From assembly GCA_902532475.1 (NCBI GenBank), contig CACAIE010000002.1, positions 11,670 through 75,669 on the forward strand: DNA of 64,000 bases, written 5' to 3'. Below the pieces are notes generated by a model. It was not told where the DNA came from and did not search any database. It saw nothing but the letters and a program-made list of their open reading frames with translations. Positions within the stretch are counted from its first letter, which is position 1, and each line of letters opens with the position of its first letter. The position numbers were made by a program, and so were the translations under genes. This DNA comes from an uncultured SAR116 cluster alpha proteobacterium. Lineage in GTDB: Bacteria > Pseudomonadota > Alphaproteobacteria > Puniceispirillales > GCA-002684695. Positions 2 through 20,305 of the stretch are shown here, piece by piece.

Positions 2-649
2 GTTGTCGGGATAGCCAGAAGATTAAACAAGTTAAAAGAATGGAGTGATGAAACAGATGGCGAGACCTCTTATTTTGCAGCTGATGTCTCAAATAGAAAT
101 CAAATAAAAAATATTGTCGATGAAGTTGTTAAAGCAGAAGGCAGCCCCGATATCCTGATTAATGCTGCTGGCTTGAACATAAGGGAGCACGCAGACGAAG
201 TTACTATAGAGGGTTGGGATAAAACCTTGGATCTAAATTTATCAGCTCCTTTTTTTATGGCGCAAGCTGTGATTGAAGAAATGAAAAAAAGAAAATGGGG
301 TAGAATTGTAAACTATGCTTCCCTGGCAAGCAGAAGAGCATTGCCAACAAGCATTGCCTATTGCGCCTCAAAAGGTGGGGTAGAACAACTTACAAGGTCT
401 ATGGCAGAAGCGTGGTCTCCTTTTGGAATTAACGTTAACGCCATTGCTCCAGGTTTTTTTCCAACAGAATTAACTGTTCCTGTTTTTAACGATAAAGAGA
501 GAACAATACGAAATGCCAAACAAACTTGCATAGGTAGAAATGGCGAACTTCAAGACTTAAATGGGCCGTTATTATTTTTATGCTCAAAGTCGTCTGATTA
601 TGTTACTGGCCAGTTGATTTTTGTTGATGGGGGTTTCACGGCAAAATGA
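2..649 (+). CDS. SDR-family oxidoreductase, 5' end cut by window edge
   Basis: Frame is open from nt 2 (VVGIARRLNK...), so the ORF-track start at 173 is an internal TTG. Has the YCASK (YxxxK) catalytic motif, NAIAPG and a C-terminal VDGGF. ATGA overlap with the next gene at 646-649. Confidence 0.85.
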   Translation, partial: VVGIARRLNKLKEWSDETDGETSYFAADVSNRNQIKNIVDEVVKAEGSPDILINAAGLNIREHADEVTIEGWDKTLDLNLSAPFFMAQAVIEEMKKRKWGRIVNYASLASRRALPTSIAYCASKGGVEQLTRSMAEAWSPFGINVNAIAPGFFPTELTVPVFNDKERTIRNAKQTCIGRNGELQDLNGPLLFLCSKSSDYVTGQLIFVDGGFTAK

Positions 650-1641
650 AAGCTTTAGTTTATACAAGTGAAAAAAACTTAGAATTTAAAGATTATGATG
701 ACCCTGTTCAAAAAGAAGGTGAGGAGTTAGTTAAAATTGACTCAGTTGGGATTTGTGGATCAGACATGCACGCCTTTTTAGGGCATGATGAAAGAAGGCC
801 CTCACCTCTTATTTTAGGCCATGAACCATCAGGGACTATTATTGGGGGTTCTGATAGTGGGAAAAGAGTAACTATCAATCCATTAGTAACATGTGGAAGT
901 TGTAGATTTTGTAAAATTCACAAAGATAACTTATGCTCAACTAGACAGATAATCTCAATACCGCCAAGAGAGGGAGCTTTTGCTGAATTCCTATCAATAC
1001 CAAAGCAAAATTTAGTTTTTATTCCTAAAAAGATCAGCTTGGAGAAAGCTTGCTTAGCAGAACCCTTAGCTTGTGGATGGCACAGTGTAAGAATAGCAAA
1101 AGACACAATTAATAATGACATTAAAAATCTTAAGTGTCTGGTCATAGGTGGTGGAGCAATTGGAATTGGCTCTGCTTTAGCTCTCAAAGCACATGGCGTA
1201 AAAAATATTTATCTAGCTGAAACAAATTCAATCAGGCATAACTTCATAAGCAAAGCTTGCGAAATGGAAGTGTTTGACCCTAATCAAAGCAATCCAATAG
1301 AAGAAGGTGATGCAGATTTGGTTATTGATGGAGTTGGAATTCGTGCAACTCGAGAAATGGCTAGTAGGTTTGTTGCACCAGGGGGAATTATAATGCATAT
1401 TGGTTTAGGTGAAGCTAAAGATGGCCTTGATATTAAAAGAATGACCCTTCAAGAAATTACATTTATTGGAACTTATACATATACTTCACAAGACTTCAAA
1501 GATACTGCTAACGCTATTTTTGATGGTCGACTTGGATCTTTAGATTGGACAGAAATAAGACCGCTCAAGGAAGGTCAAAATTGTTTTGATGAAATTTTTA
1601 ATGGAAAATCATCATCACCAAAAATTATATTAAAACCATGA
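646..1641 (+). CDS. Zn-dependent medium-chain alcohol/polyol dehydrogenase
   Basis: GICGSDMH and GHEPSG catalytic-zinc motifs, structural-zinc CGSCRFCKIHKDNLC, and Rossmann motif VIGGGAIGIG. Confidence 0.9.
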   Translation: MKALVYTSEKNLEFKDYDDPVQKEGEELVKIDSVGICGSDMHAFLGHDERRPSPLILGHEPSGTIIGGSDSGKRVTINPLVTCGSCRFCKIHKDNLCSTRQIISIPPREGAFAEFLSIPKQNLVFIPKKISLEKACLAEPLACGWHSVRIAKDTINNDIKNLKCLVIGGGAIGIGSALALKAHGVKNIYLAETNSIRHNFISKACEMEVFDPNQSNPIEEGDADLVIDGVGIRATREMASRFVAPGGIIMHIGLGEAKDGLDIKRMTLQEITFIGTYTYTSQDFKDTANAIFDGRLGSLDWTEIRPLKEGQNCFDEIFNGKSSSPKIILKP

Positions 1642-1654
1642 GAAAGGAAAAAGA

Positions 1655-1945
1655 ATGGCAGGAATACCTCAATTACTAGTTCACGAACATCATGACAATG
1701 TTGGAGTTGTTGTTGTTGAAGGTCTTAAATCTGGGACTAAAATGCTTTGCTGCATTACAGCAGATAATTCAACTTTTGAACTTGAAGCAAAAGCAGATGT
1801 CCCAATAGGCCATAAAGTTGCTTTAAGTGATCTTAAAGAAGGTGACACAGCAACGAAATATGGAGAGGATATTGGAAAATTTATAGCCAATGTTGAAAAA
1901 GGTGGCCACGTCCACGTCCACAACTTAAAAACAAAACGCTGGTAA
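1655..1945 (+). CDS. UxaA-family dehydratase/lyase small subunit (SAF domain; SuyA-like size)
   Basis: 96 aa. [24 protein letters not shown] resembles the N-terminal SAF domain of altronate/galactarate dehydratases. Has its own stop, followed by a GGGAGG RBS and the ATG of the large subunit. Confidence 0.75.
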
Positions 1946-1956
1946 GGGAGGTAAAT

Positions 1957-3138
1957 ATGTCGTCACAATATTCAAATAGAACATTTATGGGTTACAAAAG
2001 AGATAATGGTCGCGCTGGAGTTAGAAATCACGTTCTAATTTTACCTGTAGATGATATATCTAACGCTGCCGTTGAAGCGGTAGGAAATAATATCAAGGGC
2101 ACCTTAGCGTTACCTCACGCTTACGGAAGACTTCAATTCGGAGAAGACTTAGACCTTCATTTCAGAACAATGATTGGAACCGGGGCAAACCCTAATGTTG
2201 CAGCATGTATTGTCATTGGAATTGAGCCAGGATGGACCAAAACTATAGTAGACGGAATTGCTAAAACTGGAAAACCTGTTCAAGGATTTTCTATTGAACA
2301 AAATGGAGATCTTAAAACCATAATGGATGCTTCACGTAAAGCAAAAGAATTTGTCCATTACGCTTCAGAACTCCAAAAAGAAGAAATCTCAATTTCAGAA
2401 TTATGGGTATCTACTAAATGCGGTGAAAGTGATACGACTACTGGTCTGGGTTCATGCCCAACAGTAGGCAATATGTTTGATAAACTTCTGCCAGAAGGTA
2501 TTTATGGCTGCTTTGGCGAGACTTCGGAAATTACTGGCGCAGAACATATCTGCAAAAAAAGAGCTGCCAATGATGAGGTAGGTGAAAGATGGTATCAGAT
2601 GTGGCAAGCATATCAAAATGATGTAATAGAACAGTTTAAGACTGATGACTTATCAGATAGCCAACCCACCAAAGGTAATATTGAAGGAGGCCTATCTACA
2701 ATTGAAGAAAAAGCCCTAGGAAATTTAGAAAAAATAGGAAGAACTTCAAAGTATATAGATATTCTTGAACCTGCGGAAGTCCCAGAATCTGGAAATGGCC
2801 TTTATTTTATGGATAGCTCTTCAGCTGCTGCTGAATGTGTAACACTCATGGCAGCTGGTGGATATGTAGTGCACACCTTCCCTACTGGACAAGGAAATGT
2901 CGTAGGAAATCCAATAGTTCCTGTGATTAAAATTTCAGCCAACCCCAGAACAATTAGAACGATGTCCGAACATGTCGACGTAGATGTTTCAGGTATATTA
3001 AAACGTGAAATGACTATTGATGAGGCAGGAGATAGTTTGATAGAGATGATAGTGAGAACAGCAAGCGGAAGAAATACTGCCGCCGAAACTCTTGGCCACA
3101 GAGAGTTTTCTATGACAAAGCTTTACAGAAGCGCGTAA
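1957..3138 (+). CDS. UxaA-family dehydratase/lyase large subunit (SuyB-like size)
   Basis: 393 aa. Shows the C-terminal UxaA/GarD pattern ([20 protein letters not shown]). GGGAGG RBS lies 6 nt upstream. Confidence 0.8.
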
Positions 3139-3152
3139 ATTAGGAGAGCCTT

Positions 3153-3533
3153 ATGGATAATGATTTTTTTGAAAAGGGCCTTGAAAAGAGAAAGGCCACA
3201 CTTGGAAAAGAGTATGTTGAAAATAATCTAGCGAATGCAGATGAATTCACACTTCCTTTCCAAGAAGCGATGACAGCATGGTGTTGGGGTTTTGGTTGGG
3301 GAGATGAAACGATTGACCCCAAAACACGATCGATGATGAACCTGGCTATGATTGGTGCATTAGGTAAAATGCATGAGTGGGAAATCCATTGCAGAGGAGC
3401 AATTACTAATGGAGTTACTAAAGAAGAAATAAGAGCAATTATCCATGTAGTAGGCATTTATTGTGGTGTACCTCAATCATTAGAGTGCTTTAGAGTTGCA
3501 AGGAAAGTACTAGAAGAAAAGAACATGCTCTAG
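3153..3533 (+). CDS. Carboxymuconolactone decarboxylase (AhpD-like) family protein
   Basis: 126 aa. WEIHCRGAITNGVTKEEIRAIIHVVGIYCGVPQ matches the CMD-family core. AGGAG RBS. Confidence 0.75.
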   Translation: MDNDFFEKGLEKRKATLGKEYVENNLANADEFTLPFQEAMTAWCWGFGWGDETIDPKTRSMMNLAMIGALGKMHEWEIHCRGAITNGVTKEEIRAIIHVVGIYCGVPQSLECFRVARKVLEEKNML

Positions 3534-3538
3534 AAGAA

Positions 3539-4897
3539 TTGTTGAAAGGATCTGTTTTGATTGAAAAGGTAATTTCTTTTTTAAAAGATTGTAGTTTTCA
3601 AGACATCCCTGGAGTGGCTAAAGATAATTCTATTAGAAGTTTTATAGATATAGTAGGCGTTGCTGCTTCAGCAACGCAGACAGAGCTTTCAAAGATTATT
3701 AGACAACATTGCGCATCTTATTACTTACATAACCCGAAAATTAGTAAACCATCATCGATATGGTTTGACGGACGGCTAGTAAATTCAATTGGTGCGACCC
3801 TCACAAACGCAATGACAATCGACGCTTTAGATGCTCATGACGGTCACAAACTGACCAAGGGTCATGTTGGTTGTGGTGTAACACCTTCATTAATCGCGTT
3901 CATGCAATCTGAAGGGAATATGGATCCAAAAACTTTTCTTAGTAATCTTATTATAGGATATGAAATAGGAACTCGAGCAGGAATTTCCCTACACCGAACA
4001 ACAAACGATTACCATACTTCTGGCGCCTGGATTTCTCTTGCTTGCGCTGGCATAGGTTCAAATATTTTAAATTTGAATAATTCTCAAGCCAGAGAAGCCT
4101 TTGGAATTGCAGAATACCATGGACCCAGAAGTCAGATGATGCGATGCATTGACCATCCTTCTATGGTCAAAGATGGATCAGGATGGGGGGCAATGGCAGG
4201 GGTTAATGCCGCTTACCTAGCAAAAAATGGATTTACAGGTTCACCTGCAATTACAATTGAAAATGAAGAATTATCAGACATATGGTCTGACCTGGGAAGT
4301 AGATGGTACATCAATGAACAATATTTAAAACTCTACCCAGTATGCAGGTGGGCGCAGCCTGCTGTAGAAGCAACCTTAAATTTAAAAAAAAAATACAACG
4401 TTAAGCTGAATGAAATAGATAGTATTACAATCAAGACCTTCCATGAAGCGAAAAGATTAGAGGGTAAGCACCCCTCCACAACGGAGGAAGCTCAATATTC
4501 ATTGCCGCATCCAGTTGCGGTTAGTTTAATTTTTGGAAAAATTGGCGCCAAAGAAGTGTCAGAGGAACTTATTAATAATGAAGAAGTGTCTAGTCTCAGA
4601 GAGAAAATTAATGTGACGGAAAGTGAAGAATATAATAGCTATTTCCCTGAAAAACGTTTAGCTGTCGCCATCATAAAACTAAACAACGGTAAAATTCTTA
4701 AATCAGGTCCCACAGAAGCAAAAGGAGACCCTGAAAATCCACTTAATGACCTTGAAGTAAAGAAAAAATTTGAAGACTTAACCTTCAGTGTTTTAGGAGT
4801 GGAACGATCAAAAAAAATATATGAAACAATTACAAATTATCACTCTCTTGAAAGTATGCAGGAGGTTTTTTCCTTAATTACTGAGCCAATTAATTGA
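3539..4897 (+). CDS. MmgE/PrpD-family dehydratase/decarboxylase-like protein
   Basis: 452 aa with PrpD-like layout (DALDAHDGH, YHTSGAW, LKLYPVCRWAQPA). The start is TTG at 3539 or 3542 and is uncertain. Confidence 0.75.
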   Translation: MLKGSVLIEKVISFLKDCSFQDIPGVAKDNSIRSFIDIVGVAASATQTELSKIIRQHCASYYLHNPKISKPSSIWFDGRLVNSIGATLTNAMTIDALDAHDGHKLTKGHVGCGVTPSLIAFMQSEGNMDPKTFLSNLIIGYEIGTRAGISLHRTTNDYHTSGAWISLACAGIGSNILNLNNSQAREAFGIAEYHGPRSQMMRCIDHPSMVKDGSGWGAMAGVNAAYLAKNGFTGSPAITIENEELSDIWSDLGSRWYINEQYLKLYPVCRWAQPAVEATLNLKKKYNVKLNEIDSITIKTFHEAKRLEGKHPSTTEEAQYSLPHPVAVSLIFGKIGAKEVSEELINNEEVSSLREKINVTESEEYNSYFPEKRLAVAIIKLNNGKILKSGPTEAKGDPENPLNDLEVKKKFEDLTFSVLGVERSKKIYETITNYHSLESMQEVFSLITEPIN

Positions 4898-4913: not shown

Positions 4914-5976
4914 CTACTGATTGTAATACTCATCAAAAGAGTTAACCACGTAATTTAAATCGTTGTCTGATATATCGAGATGCATCACCATTCGTGTCGA
5001 AGGCAATGGCTCATTTATAATTATTCCTTTATTACTTAAAAAAGATAATAGTTTCTGACTGTCTGTTTCTTTTGGCGTGAAAAAAACCATATTTGTATTT
5101 TGGATTAATTTTTGGTCAGAACTTCCATTAGTGTATTTATTTAATTCCTTGGCCAAAAACTCAGCTCTCTCCTGATCCTCTTTCAACCTTTTGACATTAT
5201 TTTCCAGAGCGTAAATGCCAGCTGCTGCAATCACACCAGCTTGTCTCATGCCTCCTCCAAGCATTTTCCTCCATCTTCTTGCTTTTGCCTCTAATGCTTT
5301 TGGCAACAAAAGCACTGATCCTGCAGGACTTCCTAAACCTTTAGACAAACAAATTGAAACCGTGTCTGCGCAACTCGCAAGATCATTTTCATTGCAATCT
5401 AATTTTGAAATAGCGTTAAAAAAACCGGGCACCATCTAGATGCGTAGACAGGTTGTGCTTTTCTGCCTCATTTTTTGCAGCATCCATCTTATCTAAAGCT
5501 ATAGCCTTTCCCGATGCTGTGTTTTCCATGCAAACTAATGTAGAAATCGGGCAATGCGAATCATCTGGTTTTACTGCTTTAAAAATATTTTCTGGTATCA
5601 TTTCATTGTCATTTCCTGTTTCAATAGGAGCCATAGCCACTCCACCTAAAACAGAAGCTCCCGCAGCTTCATCTGTAAAAATATGATACGAGTTCCCAAT
5701 GATAATCTCTTCACCTCTTGCGCAATGAGACAGAACTGAGCATAAGTTACTTTGGGTCCCACTAGTCATCAAAATACCAGCCTCTTTGCCAAGTCTTTCA
5801 GCCAGCATTTTTTCAAGTCTATTTATACTGGGATCCTCTCCGTATACGTCATCACCTACCTCGGCGTCCGCCATGATTTTACGCATGCCTAGTGTTGGCT
5901 TTGTTACCGTATCTGACCTCAAGTCGATTAATTGGTTAGATTGATTGTTAAATTTTTTTGATAAATCATATGCCAT
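4914..5976 (-). pseudogene. ltaE: Low-specificity L-threonine aldolase split by a 1-nt frameshift in a T7 run
   Basis: The N-terminal ORF (5416..5976) ends ...HLDGARFF*. The C-terminal ORF (4914..5435) reads ...PGFFNAISKL. Removing one T from the T7 run (A7 on the plus strand, 5418-5424) gives a continuous HLDGARFFNAISKL. Threonine aldolase motifs are present (DLRSDTVTKP, GTQSNL, SICLSKGLG). Confidence 0.85.
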
Positions 5977-9061: not shown

Positions 9062-9142
9062 AAAGCTTGAAATGAAGAAAAACATCAGGTTCTATAATAT
9101 TAATTAGAATGATTCAAAATAAAAATGTTAAGGGGAAATTAT

Positions 9143-10369
9143 ATGTTTAGACAAATCTTACTTGTATTAATATTGTCACTATTTTCAGTGGCAGCTTACG
9201 CTGGCTGTGGAATTAATTCGGGATCCGTTAGAGTAATTGCTAATGACTTTCCTGCAATTCACGCAGTAGGAGATGCCGCAAAAGAATGTGATGGGGGCGG
9301 TGTAGAAATTTCAATTAATTATAATAAAGATCACAAAGATATTCATGTTGCGGCTTTAACAGCTAACCCAGCAGAATTTACTAGCTCTATAGTAGCAAAC
9401 AGTACTTTTGTTGACTTACATAACAATGGCTTAATTAGACCACTAAATGAATATGTTGAAAAGTACGGAGATGGCATAAGCAAGAATCAATTAATAACAA
9501 TTGACGGAAAAGTAATGGCTGTTGCGTTTATGGCAAACTCTGCACATTTATTTTATCGTGAAGACGTACTCAAAGCAGCAGGGCAAAATCCACCAAAATC
9601 CTTTGAAGAACTCTTAACTGTTGCAAAAGCAATTAAAGATAAGGGGCTAATGGAGCATCCTCTTGGGGGAGTTTTTAAATCAGGTTGGAATGTTGGAAAT
9701 GAGTTTGTTAACTTATACTTAGGGCATGGCGGAGAATTATTTAAAGCAGGAACGGCTGAACCAAATTTAAATAATGCTAAAGGTGTCGCAGCGTTAAATA
9801 TGATGAAAGCAATGACAGAGTATATGAATCCAGATTTTCTTACACATGATTCTAATGCTAATCAAGCGCTTTGGGAAGGCGGTAAAATAGCATTGGTTCA
9901 TCTCTGGGGATCAAGAGCTGGGGCTGTTACAGATGGTGAAAACTCAACCTCAGAAATTGAAAATAGTACCAAATTTGCTGGAGCGTTAACAGTTGGTGGC
10001 GGTTCAACACCTGCTGCAGCACTATGGTGGGACGGCTTTGTAATTGCAGCAAACATTCCAGATGCTGATGCTGAAGCAACTTTCAGAGCGTTAGCAAATG
10101 GGGTGTCACTTAAAATGGCCCAGGCTAATCAAGAAAAAGCAAATTGGATAATTAAAGGCGCTACACCTACAGCAGCTGGCGTTGGTGTTTCTGCAACTGC
10201 TCAGGCAGGAGCTCACCCGTATCCAATGGTTCCTTTTATATCCTCTCTACATGGGGCTATAGGTTCTGAAATTGTAGATTTTCTTCAGGGCAAAGAAAGT
10301 GCTGAGCAGGCCCTTTCTGATGTAGAAGCTGCATACATCACTGTAGCTAAAGAAAAGGGATTTCTCTAA
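9143..10369 (+). CDS. ABC transporter substrate-binding protein (family 1, carbohydrate type)
   Basis: Signal peptide MFRQILLVLILSLFSVAAYAGC. Start placed at ATG 9143 behind a GGGGA RBS rather than at 9125. Followed by two permeases and an ATPase. Confidence 0.85.
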   Translation: MFRQILLVLILSLFSVAAYAGCGINSGSVRVIANDFPAIHAVGDAAKECDGGGVEISINYNKDHKDIHVAALTANPAEFTSSIVANSTFVDLHNNGLIRPLNEYVEKYGDGISKNQLITIDGKVMAVAFMANSAHLFYREDVLKAAGQNPPKSFEELLTVAKAIKDKGLMEHPLGGVFKSGWNVGNEFVNLYLGHGGELFKAGTAEPNLNNAKGVAALNMMKAMTEYMNPDFLTHDSNANQALWEGGKIALVHLWGSRAGAVTDGENSTSEIENSTKFAGALTVGGGSTPAAALWWDGFVIAANIPDADAEATFRALANGVSLKMAQANQEKANWIIKGATPTAAGVGVSATAQAGAHPYPMVPFISSLHGAIGSEIVDFLQGKESAEQALSDVEAAYITVAKEKGFL

Positions 10370-10377
10370 AACCTGAC

Positions 10378-10408
10378 ACTGAGAGGAGAATTAATATCTC
10401 CTCTCAGT
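10378..10408 (+). other. Intercistronic stem-loop after the binding-protein gene (11-bp stem, 9-nt loop)
   Basis: ACTGAGAGGAG-AATTAATAT-CTCCTCTCAGT read directly. The following tract is only weakly U-rich, so it is more likely an mRNA stabiliser or partial attenuator than a full terminator. Confidence 0.5.
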
Positions 10409-10505
10409 TAATTAAAATTGGAAAATTAGTTTCTATTAATCGGGTTGCATTTTCTAGTACTTTTAGCTTGTTAGTTATAAATCAGTTTTAATTGAGGATA
10501 AAGTA

Positions 10506-11537
10506 ATGCGCCATAGAACATTTGTTAGCTTTATTTGGCCATCTGCGTTTGTAATGCTACTATTTATTGCTGTACCAATTATATCTGTAGGAGTTCAATC
10601 TCTATTTATTCAACATGAGCAAGTAATAGAAACTGTGGAAAACTGCGGTCCATTTGGTTGCAAACAAACCCAGCAAATTAATTATGAAGCGACAGAGACA
10701 TTGAGGAAAGAAAAACCCCTAGGTAGATTTGTTGGTTTAGAAGCTTACACCAATAGAAATCACTTGGCTCTTGAGGAAGTTAAAGAATCTTGGGGTACAG
10801 CAAATACCTATCAAGAATTTTATAAAGATATTATGAACTTGCCTTTTTACAAAGCGTTAGTTTTTACTTTAACATATACAGCCATTGTTACCCCGATGGT
10901 TTTGATTCTAGGTTTTCTTGTTGCTTTATCGGTAAACCGTTTGCCATCTATCTTTAAAGGCCCAACAATTTTTTGTTCATTATTGCCATTTATTGTCACT
11001 CCACTTATTGGGGCCTTGATTCTTTTTTGGATGATTGACGCAGATGGAATTATTGGTGGGACACTTCAAATTATCTTTCATAACCCTGAGTTATCACTTA
11101 AAGCTTCACCAACATTAACTTGGATTACATTAATTATATACGGCATTTGGCACTCAGCACCTTTTTCTTTTATCGTTTTTTATGCAGGCCTTCAGACAGT
11201 ACCCAAAGAAACCATTGAAAGCGCAAAAATTGACGGGGCTAATAAATGGGAACAAGTAAGGTATGTTATAATACCACATTTAATGCCTTTAGTTATATTT
11301 ATTGCTTTAATGCAACTAATGGATAATTTCCGAGTATTTGAACCCATTATAGGATTTAATGCTTCTGCAAATGCCACTTCATTGTCATGGTTGATTTATA
11401 ATGACCTAAGGGGCAGTGATGGAAACATGGTTTTTGGTTCTGCAGCGGCAACATCATTTCTGATGATTATAGGCGTATGTATTTTATTAACTCCGGTATT
11501 GATACGTACTTGGCGTTCATATCAAAAAGTCTCGTAA
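10506..11537 (+). CDS. ABC transporter permease (MalF/UgpA type)
   Basis: Multi-pass hydrophobic protein with the EAA loop ESAKIDGANKWEQVRYVIIPHLMP. Confidence 0.9.
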   Translation: MRHRTFVSFIWPSAFVMLLFIAVPIISVGVQSLFIQHEQVIETVENCGPFGCKQTQQINYEATETLRKEKPLGRFVGLEAYTNRNHLALEEVKESWGTANTYQEFYKDIMNLPFYKALVFTLTYTAIVTPMVLILGFLVALSVNRLPSIFKGPTIFCSLLPFIVTPLIGALILFWMIDADGIIGGTLQIIFHNPELSLKASPTLTWITLIIYGIWHSAPFSFIVFYAGLQTVPKETIESAKIDGANKWEQVRYVIIPHLMPLVIFIALMQLMDNFRVFEPIIGFNASANATSLSWLIYNDLRGSDGNMVFGSAAATSFLMIIGVCILLTPVLIRTWRSYQKVS

Positions 11538-11541
11538 GGAA

Positions 11542-12429
11542 ATGTTAATGATTTTTGATCAAATAAAAAAATTTAATTTTCTTACTTTACTTGCTTTAGC
11601 ATTTTTAATTCTTTGGCTGGTAATGGCAATGTTTCCCTTCATATGGACATTATGGGGGAGTTTTAAAGTTCAAGGTGATTTCTTTTCAAAACAAGACTGG
11701 AAAAACGCAATATATGGAGTTTTCACATTATCTGAAACAGGGCATTACTTTACAGGAAAAGGTTATAAAGGGGCTTGGATTATTAAAGAGTTTTGGAGAT
11801 CAACAATAAATACAATCATTGTTACCTTTTCAGTTGTAACAATCTCGCTTACATTAGGAACACTTGGAGGTTATGCTCTGGCCAGATCAGGTTTTAGGTA
11901 TGCTTTTTGGATTTTGATAATTGCACTAATTTTTAGAGCTATGCCTCATATAACTCTTGTATCTGGGTATCTGTTTCCTTTTTTCCAATTAAATATTTGG
12001 GGATATTTAGCAACAACCATCATTGTTATGGTAGCAATTAACCAGCCCTTCACATTGTGGATGCTTCATTCCTTTTTTCTAAATATTCCAAAGGAACTTG
12101 ATGAAAGCGCAATGGTAGATGGCTGCACTCGATTCCAAGCTTTTCGAAATGTTATTATCCCAGTAATGTGGCCAGGAGTCATCACCACTGGATTGTTTAG
12201 TTTTTTATTGGCATACAATGATTTTGCTTTAACTGGTTTACTTTTAACACATGAAAACCAAACTATGGTTCCAAAAATTGCTAGTTTCTTAGGAACCACT
12301 CAAGTTGAAGGCAACATAATGTATGCTGTTGCTGCAGTGGTTTCAGCTACAGCACCATTATTTGTTCTAGTAATGTTTTTTCAACGCCAAATAGTTAGTG
12401 GGTTAATAACTGGAGCTGTAAAAGGATGA
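11542..12429 (+). CDS. ABC transporter permease (MalG/UgpE type)
   Basis: EAA loop ESAMVDGCTRFQAFRNVIIPVMWPG and six predicted TM stretches. Confidence 0.9.
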   Translation: MLMIFDQIKKFNFLTLLALAFLILWLVMAMFPFIWTLWGSFKVQGDFFSKQDWKNAIYGVFTLSETGHYFTGKGYKGAWIIKEFWRSTINTIIVTFSVVTISLTLGTLGGYALARSGFRYAFWILIIALIFRAMPHITLVSGYLFPFFQLNIWGYLATTIIVMVAINQPFTLWMLHSFFLNIPKELDESAMVDGCTRFQAFRNVIIPVMWPGVITTGLFSFLLAYNDFALTGLLLTHENQTMVPKIASFLGTTQVEGNIMYAVAAVVSATAPLFVLVMFFQRQIVSGLITGAVKG

Positions 12430-12446
12430 GTACAGGAAAATAAATC

Positions 12447-13514
12447 ATGGCTAGTGTTAATCTAAGTAATTTAACTAAAAAATGGGGCGACTTTACAGCA
12501 GTTGATAACTTCAATCTTCAAATTCTAGATAAAGAATTTATAGTTCTCCTAGGGCCTTCTGGATGTGGAAAAACAACGACAATGAGAATGATTGCAGGTC
12601 TGGAAGAGATTACTCTAGGTAATGTTTTCATAAATGAAATAAAAGTTAATGATTTAGAGCCTAAAGATCGAGATATAGCAATGGTTTTTCAATCTTACGG
12701 CCTTTACCCCAACATGAATGTGTTTGAAAATATAAGATTCCCGTTAAAAGTAAGAAAGGTAGATAAGTCCACTCACGAAGAAAGAGTGATGAAAGCTGCT
12801 GAAATGGTTGAATTAAGTGAATTTTTACATAGAAAGCCTGCTGCTTTATCAGGGGGTCAAAGACAAAGGGTGGCTCTTGCCAGAGCGATCGTAAGAGAAC
12901 CAAATTTATTTCTAATGGATGAGCCTCTATCCAACCTAGATGCAAAACTTAGAGTTTCTACCCGTGCTCAAATTAAGCATTTACATCACAAGCTAAAGGT
13001 TACAACTATTTATGTTACTCATGATCAAGTGGAAGCGATGACATTAGCAGATAGAGTTGTCGTAATGAATGAAGGCGTCATTCAACAAGTCGGAACTCCT
13101 TCTAAGATATATAATCAGCCTAAAAATGTATTTGTCGCTGGCTTTATTGGTAATCCAGCTATGAATCTAATAACTGGCCAATTGGTAAAGGGTGTTTTTA
13201 AAAGTGAGAATATTGTTGTTAAGGGACTAAAAGGTCCGGATGGTCCTATTAAATTGGGCTTCAGAGCTGAGGATGCATTAGTAATTTCGAAAACCTCAAC
13301 GAAACGAAAGAGTGAAATAACTGCTCAGGTTTATACGTCTGAACTTCTTGGTGATTCAACAATGTTAACAATAAAAGTTGGCCGGGCAATGGTTATAGTA
13401 AAAGCCCATAAGGATTATCAAGCTAAAATCGGGGAAATAGTAAATATATCTATCCCTCAAAAAGTTTGTCATCTTTTTGATGCTAAATCAGGAGATAATT
13501 TACAATACACTTAA
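12447..13514 (+). CDS. ABC transporter ATP-binding protein (MalK/UgpC type)
   Basis: Walker A GPSGCGKTT, signature LSGGQRQRVALARA, Walker B LFLMDEPLSNLD, and a C-terminal regulatory domain. Confidence 0.93.
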   Translation: MASVNLSNLTKKWGDFTAVDNFNLQILDKEFIVLLGPSGCGKTTTMRMIAGLEEITLGNVFINEIKVNDLEPKDRDIAMVFQSYGLYPNMNVFENIRFPLKVRKVDKSTHEERVMKAAEMVELSEFLHRKPAALSGGQRQRVALARAIVREPNLFLMDEPLSNLDAKLRVSTRAQIKHLHHKLKVTTIYVTHDQVEAMTLADRVVVMNEGVIQQVGTPSKIYNQPKNVFVAGFIGNPAMNLITGQLVKGVFKSENIVVKGLKGPDGPIKLGFRAEDALVISKTSTKRKSEITAQVYTSELLGDSTMLTIKVGRAMVIVKAHKDYQAKIGEIVNISIPQKVCHLFDAKSGDNLQYT

Positions 13515-13523
13515 GGAGAAAAA

Positions 13524-14054
13524 ATGGTTGGTGCACGTCCAAAGCAAGCAGAACTTACAGAAGATACAGATCTTAGCAAAACCGATGATACACGTCGTGT
13601 CATAGAATCAATGTGCGATGGCATGAATGACCACAGAATTGATGATATGGATGAATTCTTTGCCACTAATTTTAGATGGATGGGGAATACGGGATGCGGA
13701 ACAAAAAATGGACTCAAAGAATTTCAAGATAATTGGCAAAGACCTTTTCAAGCTGCTTTTTCAGATAAGGTTTGTATAGATGAAGCCAGATTATTTATGG
13801 GTGAGTGGGCTGCTGCATTTGGACGACAAGAAGCCATTCATTCTGGCGAATTCATGGGAATAAAACCAACAGGGAAAAAAGTAGAAATTAGATATATGGA
13901 TTTTTGGAAAGTAAAAGAGGGACGCATAATTGACAACTGGGTAATGGTTGATTTTCCATATGTAATGGCACAATTGGGAGAGGATGCATTTAACGGTCAT
14001 GGTTGGGAAATTTTCGATAGAGGTGAAGCCTCCCCCCCCAGACCTAAGTGTTAA
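13524..14054 (+). CDS. SnoaL-like ester cyclase family protein (single domain)
   Basis: GEFMGIKPTGKKVEIRYMDFWKVKEGRIIDNWVMVDFPYVMAQLG is the typical SnoaL/ester-cyclase C-terminal pattern. Confidence 0.75.
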   Translation: MVGARPKQAELTEDTDLSKTDDTRRVIESMCDGMNDHRIDDMDEFFATNFRWMGNTGCGTKNGLKEFQDNWQRPFQAAFSDKVCIDEARLFMGEWAAAFGRQEAIHSGEFMGIKPTGKKVEIRYMDFWKVKEGRIIDNWVMVDFPYVMAQLGEDAFNGHGWEIFDRGEASPPRPKC

Positions 14055-14092
14055 TTTATGGTGGTCTTTGAAAAAGAAATGAAAGCTAAATA

Positions 14093-15121
14093 ATGACAAC
14101 AGAGAAAGTAACATCGCTTGACGTAGCAAAAAAGATTGGAGTGAGCCAATCTGCCGTAAGCAGAGTGTTTACACCAGGTGCGTCCGTTTCTAATGCAATG
14201 GAAGACAAGGTTCTCAAGGCTGCAAATGAACTAGGTTATAGGCCTAACATGCTTGCTCGATCTCTTAATACTGGGAAGTCTAAAATGATTGGGCTAGTTG
14301 TATCGTATCTGGACAATCAGTTTTACCCTGATGTTTTAGAGAGTTTATCAAGTAAACTGCAGGAAAGTGGTTATCATATTCTTATTTTTATTGCCTCAAA
14401 TGGTACTAAAAATTTTGATCAAGTTTTAAATGAAATTCTTGATTATCAAGTTGATGGAATTATCATGGCTTCCGTTGAATTGTCTTCTGTCATTTCTAAA
14501 AAAATTGATTCGGCTGGAATACCGGTAATTCTTTTAAATCGTTCTTTGGACAATATGCGGTTTTCAAGTGTCACATCAAATAATTACAATGGTGGAAAAC
14601 AGATTGCTAACTTTTTGATAAAAGGTGGACACAGGAAAATTTCTCATATCGCTGGAAATGAAAAAGCTTCAACCCAAAGAGATAGAGAAACTGGTTTTAT
14701 AGATGGGCTAAAAGAAAATGGAGTGGATTTATTTTCAAGAGAAATAGGAAATTTTGTTTTGGATGAGGCGTCCTCAGCAACAAGAAAAATGTTTTCTTCA
14801 AAAAACTCTCCTGACGCAGTGTTTGTTGCAAACGATCATATGGCTTTTGCAGTCATGGATGTTTTGAGAATGGAATTAGGGTTGAAAATACCTGAAGATG
14901 TGTCCGTTGTTGGTTATGATGATGTTAAAATTTCTTCATGGCCAAGTTACGATTTAACAACGGTTCGGCAACCTATAAACAATATGGTTGATAGAACAAT
15001 TTCTTTATTAATTTCACAATTAGAAGGAAACAAACCAGCTAAGCAAATCGAAGTAGAAGCTGAACTCATCGTTCGAAATTCAGCAAAACTTCCTAGAAAT
15101 AATTTTAACAAAAGGAGTTAA
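14093..15121 (+). CDS. LacI-family transcriptional regulator
   Basis: N-terminal HTH TSLDVAKKIGVSQSAVSRVF followed by a periplasmic-binding-fold effector domain (VANDHMAFAVMD, VVGYDD). Confidence 0.92.
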   Translation: MTTEKVTSLDVAKKIGVSQSAVSRVFTPGASVSNAMEDKVLKAANELGYRPNMLARSLNTGKSKMIGLVVSYLDNQFYPDVLESLSSKLQESGYHILIFIASNGTKNFDQVLNEILDYQVDGIIMASVELSSVISKKIDSAGIPVILLNRSLDNMRFSSVTSNNYNGGKQIANFLIKGGHRKISHIAGNEKASTQRDRETGFIDGLKENGVDLFSREIGNFVLDEASSATRKMFSSKNSPDAVFVANDHMAFAVMDVLRMELGLKIPEDVSVVGYDDVKISSWPSYDLTTVRQPINNMVDRTISLLISQLEGNKPAKQIEVEAELIVRNSAKLPRNNFNKRS

Positions 15122-18267: not shown

Positions 18268-18963
18268 ATGGATAAAGAACTTCATAATTTATTAAAAAAA
18301 GTAGACACACCTACTGTTTCAAATGCAATTGAAGTAGCGCAAGGTAAACGTGGATATAAAAATTTTACCAGAGGAACTATGCACTGTTCTGATGCAAAAG
18401 CAGGTTCAATAGTTGGTTACGCGAGAACTGCTTCTATTGCAGCTGCTGAAGCTCCTTTAGAATCTTCTGATATCATAAGGGCGCGAAGAATGAATTATTA
18501 TCAACATATGTCAGAAGGTCCAAAACCTTCGATAGCCGTTGTTGAAGACATTGATTTTCCTAACTGTGTTGGAGCGTATTGGGGTGAAGTTAATACGAAC
18601 GTTCATAAATCTTTTGGTATATCTGGTGCTCTGACAAACGGAGTTATGCGTGATTTAGGTGATTTGCCAAATGGCTTTCCTGTTATAGCCGGTTCCATCG
18701 GTCCTAGCCATATGTTTACACATGTAAAAACTATTGGGGAAGGAGCAAATATATTTGGAATGGAAGTCAAAGAAGGTGCACTGTTGCATGCTGACCAACA
18801 TGGCGCAATAGTGATCCCCGATAATGTGATTTCAGATCTCTATTCAGCAATAAACACGCTTTTAAAAACAGAAAAATTAATTCTGGAGCCATCTAAAAAA
18901 GGACCTATGTCTTTTAAAGAGTTTGAAGAAGCTTGGTCCACATTTGAAAAGAGTAGAACCTAG
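18268..18963 (+). CDS. RraA-fold protein of the long (about 230 aa) HMG/CHA-aldolase / oxaloacetate decarboxylase type
   Basis: [28 protein letters not shown] core. At 231 aa it matches aldolase-type members rather than the roughly 160-aa RraA regulators. Confidence 0.65.
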
Positions 18964-18997: not shown

Positions 18998-20305
18998 ATG
19001 ATAAAATATTTAAAAAAAGGAAAATCAGATACACAGAAAAATCAAGAAGAAACAGAAGTTCGAAATAAAGTTGAGGACATCTTAAAAGAGTTGAAAAAAG
19101 GGGGCGACAAGGCTGTTTTAAAGCTTTCTGAAAAATTTGATAATTATAGCCCTAAATCTTTTCGCTTAAGCCAAGAGGAAATTGAAAAGGCTATAAAGAA
19201 AGTTTCAAAGCAGGATTTAGATGATATAAAATTTGCACAAAAACAAATTCGAAATTTTGCTGAAAAACAAAGAGCATCATTAAAAGATATTGAAGTGGAA
19301 ACTCTTCCTGGCGTTATATTAGGTCACAAGAATATACCTGTTAACTCAGTTGGATGTTATGTTCCTGGAGGAAAATTTCCAATGATTGCTTCAGCGCATA
19401 TGTCAGTATTGACAGCGAGTGTAGCTGGTGTTCCAAGGATTATTGCCTCAGCTCCACCACATAATGGCGCTCCACACCCTGCAATTGTTACAGCTATGCA
19501 TTTAGCTGGTGCGCATGAAATTTATTGCATTGGAGGAATTCAAGCGGTTGGAGCAATGGCTTTAGGAACTGAGACAATTAAGCCAGTAGACATGTTAGTT
19601 GGTCCTGGCAATGCATTTGTAGCAGAAGCAAAGCGTCAACTATTTGGAATTGTAGGCATTGATTTATTTGCTGGCCCAACTGAAACTATGATTATTGCCG
19701 ACGAAACAGTTGATGCAGAAATTTGTGCCACAGATTTACTTGGCCAAGCAGAACATGGTTATAATTCTCCAGCAGTTTTAATTACAAACTCCAATAAACT
19801 TGCAAAAGAAACATTAACAGAAATTGAAAGAATTTTAAAAATTCTTCCCACTTCTGAAACTGCTTCTGCTAGCTGGAAAGACTATGGTGAAGTAATTGTT
19901 TGTGACAATTACGAAGAAATGCTTGAAACTTCTGAAGCAAAAGCTTTTGAGCACGTTCAAGTGATGACAGACCGCGATGATTGGTTTCTTGAACAGATGA
20001 CATGCTACGGAGCATTATTTTTAGGACCAAGAACAAATGTTGCAAACGGCGATAAAGTTATTGGTACAAATCATACACTTCCCACAAAAAAAGCTGGTCG
20101 ATACACAGGTGGTCTCTGGGTAGGAAAATTTCTAAAAACTCATAGCTACCAGAAGATACTTACCGACAAAGCAGCAACTATACTTGCTGAAAAATGTTCG
20201 AGATTATGCATTTTAGAAGGGTTTGTAGGCCATGCAGAACAAGCAAACATTCGAGCAAGGCGCTACGGAAGAAAAAATATTGAATATGGAAAGGCAGCAA
20301 AGTAG
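18998..20305 (+). CDS. Histidinol dehydrogenase-family NAD-dependent alcohol-to-acid dehydrogenase
   Basis: Start placed at ATG 18998; the ORF-track start at 18923 overlaps the previous gene. HisD motifs [26 protein letters not shown]. There are no other his biosynthesis genes nearby. Confidence 0.8.

Follow-up and report, generated by a model that had tools for sequence, protein, structure and literature searches.

The first six genes of a 64,000-nt stretch of DNA from an uncultured alphaproteobacterium of the SAR116 cluster (hereafter the window; positions 11670-75669 of contig C2 of genome G000, a metagenome-assembled genome (MAG) of 1.94 Mb with a completeness of 65%) very probably constitute the 3' two-thirds of an operon for the breakdown of DHPS (2,3-dihydroxypropane-1-sulfonate), with a core of hpsN-hpsO-hpsP-suyA-suyB and a genus-specific 3' extension that consists of a CMD-family gene and an MmgE/PrpD-family gene. 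DHPS is an algal sulfonate whose degradation route ends at pyruvate and sulfite. Each core enzyme is, as judged by its sequence, an orthologue of a characterised HpsN, HpsO, HpsP, SuyA or SuyB. The original prediction, made from the DNA letters alone, had gone no further than a resemblance to the DHPS-sulfolactate system; the orthology of all five core enzymes and the phylogeny of SuyB make for a stronger statement. What emerges is a known pathway in a new host, with a genus-specific 3' extension and no new chemistry added.

All six open reading frames (ORFs) are present on the plus strand between positions 2 and 4897 (Table 1), and the tight coupling originally described for them is confirmed by the spacers, which are, in order, a 4-nt overlap and 13, 11, 14 and 5 nt. 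Pfam and NCBIfam assign adh_short to the short-chain dehydrogenase/reductase (SDR), ADH_N and ADH_zinc_N to the zinc-dependent alcohol dehydrogenase (Zn-ADH), GD_AH_second and GD_AH_C to the 393-aa protein, and CMD and MmgE_PrpD_N + C to the last two products. The SDR gene reaches past the start of the window; when completed from the contig (L002:11557-12318), it encodes 253 aa, and the unit then reads hpsN-hpsO-hpsP-suyA-suyB, with suyA-suyB directly 3' of the three dehydrogenase genes, followed by the CMD and PrpD-like genes.

The UxaA-family enzyme is encoded as a 96-aa and a 393-aa protein, in line with SuyAB, a UxaA-family enzyme with subunits of about 10 and 42 kDa. At the junction of the two genes stands TGG TAA GGGAGG TAAAT ATG, so that the stop codon, ribosome-binding site (RBS) and start codon of the original prediction are real. 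The split is not a frameshift, because the same 96 + 393 aa pair recurs in Paracoccus versutus, Cupriavidus pinatubonensis and 29 other alphaproteobacterial loci. For the small protein, described as a SAF-domain protein in the original prediction, Pfam gives no SAF match at E <= 0.001; it matches the N-terminus of the galactarate dehydratase model (TIGR03248 positions 6-78, E 3.4e-9). Two reference loci, on C. pinatubonensis HN-2 plasmid p2 (L003) and P. versutus plasmid pTAV3 (L004), were obtained from a tblastn search of the HpsN-like protein against plasmids. Identities to C. pinatubonensis and P. versutus, respectively, are 57% and 60% for HpsN, 48% and 59% for HpsO, 42% and 53% for HpsP, 47% and 71% for SuyA, and 67% and 80% for SuyB, so that the five core proteins span 42-80% overall.

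When the 393-aa protein was compared with the plasmids of PLSDB, identities were bimodal, with 11 records at 60-90%, one at 59% and the rest at no more than 37%; this last group includes annotated altronate and galactarate dehydratases. A maximum-likelihood tree was computed for 39 sequences, among them 28 alphaproteobacterial orthologues, Rhodococcus jostii RHA1, the two reference SuyBs, four other split UxaA proteins and three fused UxaA/GarD proteins. In this phylogeny, of the kind proposed with the original prediction, the 393-aa protein groups with both reference SuyBs in one clade (SH-aLRT support 100, stem 2.6 substitutions per site), to the exclusion of every sugar-acid-type protein and of the other split members. 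On this placement the large subunit is of the SuyB type; clustering with sugar-acid dehydratases, which the original prediction had named as grounds for giving up the sulfonate idea, is not seen. The original prediction had offered as an alternative that the split enzyme dehydrates an unusual sugar acid, with the dehydrogenases preparing its substrate. It is true that the domains named by Pfam and NCBIfam are exclusively those of galactarate/altronate dehydratases, and that the SDR scores 320 bits against PDB 6le3, an entry named gluconate 5-dehydrogenase; yet identity to the SuyBs of the two DHPS/sulfolactate clusters stands at 80% and 67%, as opposed to 27-37% for all other UxaA-family proteins, fused UxaA and GarD lie outside a clade with a support of 100, the HpsN encoded upstream carries the motif with the sulfonate-binding His, and no gene for a sugar-acid kinase or aldolase is found within the operon. 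Rejected on the tree and the distribution of identities, the sugar-acid reading retains next to no probability.

In a sample of 400 genomes of the class (one of them, the unpublished G279, counted in the tally only), SuyB is present at 67-87% identity in 33 other genomes; near-identical proteins are labelled 'SAR116 cluster bacterium' at NCBI and '(2R)-sulfolactate sulfo-lyase subunit beta' at JGI. Another split UxaA pair was noticed on plasmid 3 of Variovorax sp. PBL-E5 (L111). It shares 36% identity with SuyB, falls outside the SuyB clade and has GntR, hydroxyacid dehydrogenase, TctC and Ldh-family genes as neighbours, which is the architecture of sulfolactate (slc/suy) clusters; the pair may act as a lyase on a related 2-hydroxy acid.

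The gene that ends 7 nt before the start of the SDR gene is, by its score and motifs, a clear HpsN orthologue: its product scores 566 bits against PDB 8v35 (sulfopropanediol 3-dehydrogenase HpsN) versus 260 bits against the best histidinol dehydrogenase. HpsN proteins carry the loop motif G-R-Y-A/S-H, with the sulfonate-binding His126, where HisD has G-S-A-P-L, and use Glu318, His319, Asp352 and Lys353 as catalytic and zinc residues (PMC11382572). The protein encoded at L002:10243-11550 has GGRYAH in the alignment, as do the HpsN proteins of C. pinatubonensis and P. versutus, and the four catalytic and zinc residues are invariant alignment columns. The HisD-family gene that had originally been put forward for this role lies farther inside the window, at 18923/18998..20305 (Histidinol_dh, 457 bits). 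Its product has G-K-F-P-M at the position of the HpsN loop and is 45-47% identical to HpsN, and it therefore fits neither the HpsN type nor the canonical HisD type. The motif, GKFPM and not GRYAH, rules it out as HpsN, the actual hpsN being located directly upstream of the window. SnoaL-like, cupin, RraA-like and Meth_synt_2 genes surround this second paralogue. The closest relative of the SAR116 HpsN that was found, at 68% identity, is encoded in another alphaproteobacterium (L217, G127:C1:2421000-2440999), in which hpsN is directly followed by hpsP-suyA-suyB and a ComC-like gene, without hpsO; divergent from that hpsN is a GMC oxidoreductase gene whose product is 44% identical to the one encoded 5' of the SAR116 operon, so that GMC and hpsN genes are linked here for a second time.

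The Zn-ADH scores 405 bits against PDB 8wwd and 100 bits against the next PDB entry. Entry 8wwd is the Zn-ADH of the 8wwd/8wwe/8wwf series, which we take to be the DsHpsP of PMC11131964. Three residues described for HpsP (PMC11131964), the catalytic His59 together with Glu60 and Glu139, are kept by the Zn-ADH when it is aligned with 8wwd. For the full-length SDR, the top PDB match is 8wwf, '(R)-DHPS dehydrogenase HpsO' (334 bits), and the triad Ser145, Tyr158 and Lys162 is invariant both in the HpsO alignment and in the alignment to 8wwf.

By orthology, HpsN would convert (R)-DHPS to (R)-sulfolactate in two oxidation steps that involve zinc and NAD+, HpsP would oxidise (S)-DHPS, and the HpsO-like SDR would act on (R)-DHPS or a close analogue; a 2024 model has HpsO and HpsP make sulfolactaldehyde (PMC11131964), whereas an older one regarded them as a joint racemase. 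SuyAB would then split (R)-sulfolactate into pyruvate and sulfite, which would probably leave the cell via one of the TauE-family exporters of the genome. A search for sulfite exporters and oxidases, suggested along with the original prediction, gave five TauE-family genes; neither a PF03601 (SuyZ-type) domain nor a molybdopterin sulfite-oxidase domain was found in the 65%-complete genome. The five TauE genes fit a report of SAR116 MAGs with many tauE genes (10.1101/2024.12.10.627767).

Several points weigh against the DHPS reading or against treating the last two genes as additions to it. All operon functions are predicted from homology. The HpsO-like protein has no Gln147, which in Ruegeria pomeroyi HpsO hydrogen-bonds the C2-OH of (R)-DHPS and which cannot be replaced by Ala (Q147A) without loss of most of the activity (PMC11131964). 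Position 147 is Gln in the HpsO proteins of P. versutus, C. pinatubonensis and R. pomeroyi and Ala, with two Arg after it (ASLASRR), in this genome and two sister species (3/3 genus sequences); because Gln147 is missing and Q147A impairs the R. pomeroyi enzyme, the substrate of the HpsO-like protein may differ, and Ala147 together with the Arg pair suggests a changed substrate or binding mode. A search of this genome gave neither a DHPS transporter nor an HpsR-like regulator, and the TRAP transporter genes found ahead of the operon in sister genomes are absent from it, at its completeness of 65%. A LacI regulator and an ABC transporter encoded in the window (9125-15121) were considered as HpsR and DHPS transporter and discarded, the regulator being 25-27% identical to HpsR and the binding protein and permeases unmatched. 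The CMD and PrpD-like genes follow at gaps of 14 and 5 nt, with no terminator found between genes (promoter and terminator scans were uninformative, giving the counts expected from shuffles); these short spacers and the lack of a terminator make co-expression with suyAB likely, and the two genes, co-directional with suyAB, are probably co-transcribed with it. In the class sample, SuyB occurs in 9 of the 24 genomes with a high-identity CMD protein and in 24 of the 376 without one (odds ratio 8.8, p = 3e-5), a co-occurrence that we treat as a lead, since it is confounded by phylogeny and marine habitat and the genomes are not independent.

Table 1. Genes of the predicted SAR116 DHPS operon and its immediate neighbours, with positions in window coordinates unless marked otherwise
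Gene and predicted product	Position	Strand	Basis or remark
hpsN orthologue, 435 aa	L002:10243-11550, ~ -1426..-119 in window coordinates	same strand as operon	beyond window edge
hpsO-like SDR	2..649	+	3' 215 codons in window, 5' part cut by window edge
hpsP, Zn-dependent (S)-DHPS dehydrogenase orthologue, 331 aa	646..1641	+	PDB 8wwd match, conserved residues
suyA, putative (2R)-sulfolactate sulfo-lyase small subunit, 96 aa	1655..1945	+	identity to reference SuyA
suyB, putative (2R)-sulfolactate sulfo-lyase large subunit, 393 aa	1957..3138	+	identity and tree
PcaC-like CMD-family gene, 126 aa	3153..3533	+	Pfam CMD
MmgE/PrpD-family gene, 452 aa	3539..4897	+	Pfam MmgE_PrpD_N + C
threonine-aldolase-like (Beta_elim_lyase) gene, 173 + 186 aa ORFs	4914..5976	-	Pfam; context, outside sulfonate route

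The two genes 3' of suyB had led the original prediction to propose that the chemistry may be new, as neither family is part of a described sulfonate route. The order suyB-CMD-PrpD is kept in 7/8 genomes of the SAR116 genus (no PrpD-like match was obtained in the eighth, whose completeness is 79%). In other taxa, CMD or PrpD adjoins suyB in none of 29 suyB loci, the CMD orthologues (50-88% identical) of 29 loci have no suyB nearby, and the PrpD-like orthologues (46-53% identical) of 79 loci have neither suyB nor hpsN within 9 kb, so that a search for a link between CMD/PrpD and suyAB beyond the genus came back empty from all three directions. Because the two genes adjoin suyB in a single genus and each family is usually found in other surroundings, the idea of new chemistry lacks comparative support, and the CMD and PrpD-like genes seem to be additions restricted to the genus.

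A related proposal is that the two proteins are working parts of a SAR116-specific extension of C3-sulfonate metabolism, for example in the epimerisation of (S)-sulfolactate or in a second beta-elimination, and that their genes occupy the slot after suyB that elsewhere holds ComC-like or SuyZ genes. We consider this improbable, even though the genes are co-directional and tightly spaced 3' of suyB, conserved there in the 7 genomes mentioned above, and the position after suyB is taken in other lineages by ComC-like Ldh_2, SlcC-like or SuyZ genes. According to the names of PDB entries, the MmgE/PrpD family includes an epimerase and dehydratases. These enzymes abstract a proton alpha to a carboxylate. 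The CMD-SuyB co-occurrence (odds ratio 8.8) also speaks for such an extension, as does the recurrence of a CMD-PrpD-family pairing at two loci elsewhere (L058 and L125). Against this stand the lack of suyB or hpsN near the 79 PrpD-like and 29 CMD orthologues outside the genus, the habitual neighbours of the PrpD-like genes, which indicate betaine or acyl-CoA metabolism, the confounding of the co-occurrence statistic by shared ancestry and habitat, and the coexistence of ComC-like orthologues with CMD-PrpD in two genomes of the genus (G005 and G002), so that the pair is not a replacement. The 2024 pathway model requires a conversion of (S)-sulfolactate via sulfopyruvate (PMC11131964). ComC-like genes (47-49%) are found in the same two genomes, and SlcC-like genes in G000, G002, G006 and G007, with 47-50% identity to the one of P. 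versutus; because such genes exist elsewhere in the genomes of the genus, no gap in the pathway requires CMD or PrpD, and the suggestion that the pair fills a missing sulfolactate-racemase step is unsupported. It is likewise doubtful that the CMD and MmgE/PrpD-family proteins, perhaps with the products of the DUF3604 and GMC-oxidoreductase genes upstream, are true parts of an extended C3-sulfonate pathway; were it so, a cofactor-independent (S)-sulfolactate epimerase or a second lyase would be possible, a new reaction for both families.

The CMD protein reaches 115.6 bits with the PcaC model TIGR02425, under the cut-off of 155.7, and has no pca genes nearby, so that a role as 4-carboxymuconolactone decarboxylase PcaC in the beta-ketoadipate pathway was rejected. 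Its ATG is preceded by AGGAG at 8 nt, and the protein contains no CxxC motif. Orthologues 74-88% identical occur in 24 of the 400 sampled Alphaproteobacteria, across many families and including genomes of 1.2 Mb; the protein is unusually conserved across the class. The contexts of these orthologues vary, with aldehyde dehydrogenase (ALDH), Rieske oxygenase, GcvT-like and other genes; the ALDH found beside CMD in other taxa is not the one encoded 5' of the SAR116 operon, as the two are 32-34% identical. Look-ups of the CMD and PrpD-like proteins in the ESM Atlas returned generic family names only.

The PrpD-like protein is weakly related to members of its family with solved structures (IRG1 52 bits, IDS epimerase 48, PrpD 43) and scores 49 and 55 bits with the 2-methylcitrate dehydratase models TIGR02330 and NF006943, whose cut-offs are 458 and 575. 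With neither prpB nor prpC found near the gene, an identity as 2-methylcitrate dehydratase PrpD was dismissed. The TTG start at 3539 has a weak RBS, and translation may in fact begin a few codons farther 3', because alignments of homologues begin at about residue 7-13. The 79 loci with orthologues come from named genomes of Rhodobacterales, Rhizobiaceae, Acidimicrobiales, Granulosicoccaceae and others. A threonine-aldolase-like gene, from the family that is the most frequent immediate neighbour of this PrpD-like subfamily in other lineages, lies immediately 5' of the PrpD-like gene in 10 of these loci and also in SAR116 family f2, there together with an enolase-superfamily gene and a Rieske oxygenase. 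MttB-family methyltransferases are found near the gene in 14 loci, and other recurrent neighbours are genes for acyl-CoA ligase, dehydrogenase and hydratase, OpuAC binding proteins and GlxA/AraC-type regulators. The subfamily, which is widespread in marine lineages, is apparently an uncharacterised enzyme tied to the catabolism of betaine or osmolytes. In the window, a threonine-aldolase-like gene converges on the PrpD-like gene across a 16-nt gap, and in sister genomes it is intact (353 aa) at the same position. The recurrent neighbours elsewhere and this convergent gene make it most plausible that the PrpD-like gene is part of a separate amino-acid or betaine module: its function is most likely tied to that of the threonine-aldolase-like gene or to an osmolyte/betaine-type route, not to desulfonation.

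On the other side of the operon, hpsN is preceded by the GMC oxidoreductase gene, then by a gene for a 777-aa DUF3604-like protein (a PDB sequence search with this protein gave no match) and then by an AT-rich gap of 245 nt. Farther 5' on the same strand (L002:2-6004) lie genes for a taurine dioxygenase-like TauD protein, an acetolactate-synthase-like thiamine-pyrophosphate enzyme, a DMFA2_C-domain protein and a succinate-semialdehyde-dehydrogenase-like ALDH; together with the hps and suy genes, these look like an organosulfonate/amine island. Sister genomes (L219, that is, G001:C1:38000-51500, L220 and L221), one of which has operon proteins 92-99% identical to those described here, carry genes that are missing from this contig: a TRAP transporter (DctP/Q/M) and two minus-strand genes between the ALDH and DUF3604 genes, a TauE-like gene before the ALDH gene, and an SDR and HIBADH-family pair between the GMC gene and hpsN. 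In their place, this genome has spacers of 245, 78 and 47 nt (L002:4469-6249 and L002:10196-10243). Homopolymer frameshifts near the operon in this genome may be sequencing errors. The seeming absence of suyA from sister genome G005 is an artefact of a 100-N gap.

The breakdown of DHPS has so far been attributed mainly to Roseobacters and SAR11. Because this low-GC SAR116 genus possesses a complete, fused hpsNOP-suyAB operon, it should be counted among the consumers of DHPS and sulfolactate. In the literature consulted, hps and suy genes are described in marine Alphaproteobacteria, and no description of this SAR116 arrangement was found. Features that merit attention are the HpsO variant without the stereo-determining Gln147, the lack here of TRAP, TauE and two dehydrogenase genes that sister genomes have, and the presence of two widespread but uncharacterised marine enzyme subfamilies, PcaC-like CMD and PrpD-like, that are probably co-transcribed with suyAB in this genus only.

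Among known systems, UxaA and GarD (PDB 6u7l) share the Pfam domains GD_AH_second and GD_AH_C with the large subunit, and the small subunit matches the N-terminus of GarD, but they are fused chains of about 500-520 aa that are 27-31% identical and fall outside the SuyB clade. The cluster of C. pinatubonensis (JMP134 type; HN-2 p2) reads LacI-hpsN-hpsO-MFS-hpsP-UxaA(small)-UxaA(large), with the same five enzymes in the same order as in SAR116 and an HpsN that has its motif and catalytic residues in common with the SAR116 protein. Genes for a LacI-type regulator and an MFS transporter form part of this cluster, and CMD and PrpD genes are absent from it, whereas the SAR116 genome has no such transporter or regulator and its operon has DUF3604 and GMC genes on the 5' side and CMD and PrpD-like genes on the 3' side. 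Among the named loci, pTAV3 of P. versutus shows the highest identities, with SuyA and SuyB likewise of 96 and 393 aa; here, suyAB lies close to hpsNOP but apart from it, beside a GntR regulator and a PF03601-type exporter, with SlcC-like and Ldh_2 (ComC-like) genes and a TTT transporter nearby. SuyAB has reportedly been characterised in Paracoccus pantotrophus, a sister species of P. versutus. A SAR116 genome of another family has suyAB followed by SlcC-like and ComC-like genes. The order hpsN-hpsO-hpsP-suyA-suyB recurs in 7/10 alphaproteobacterial suyB loci read at 20 kb. The marine alphaproteobacterial operons of the Roseobacter type, whose enzymology is described in PMC11131964, run from a LacI regulator gene (hpsR) and TRAP genes through hpsN, hpsO, hpsP, suyA and suyB to a ComC-like Ldh_2 gene and/or SuyZ. 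The SAR116 operon has the same fused hpsNOP-suyAB order and keeps H59, E60 and E139 of HpsP, and differs in its 3' end, made up of CMD and PrpD-like genes, and in the replacement of Gln147 of HpsO by Ala.

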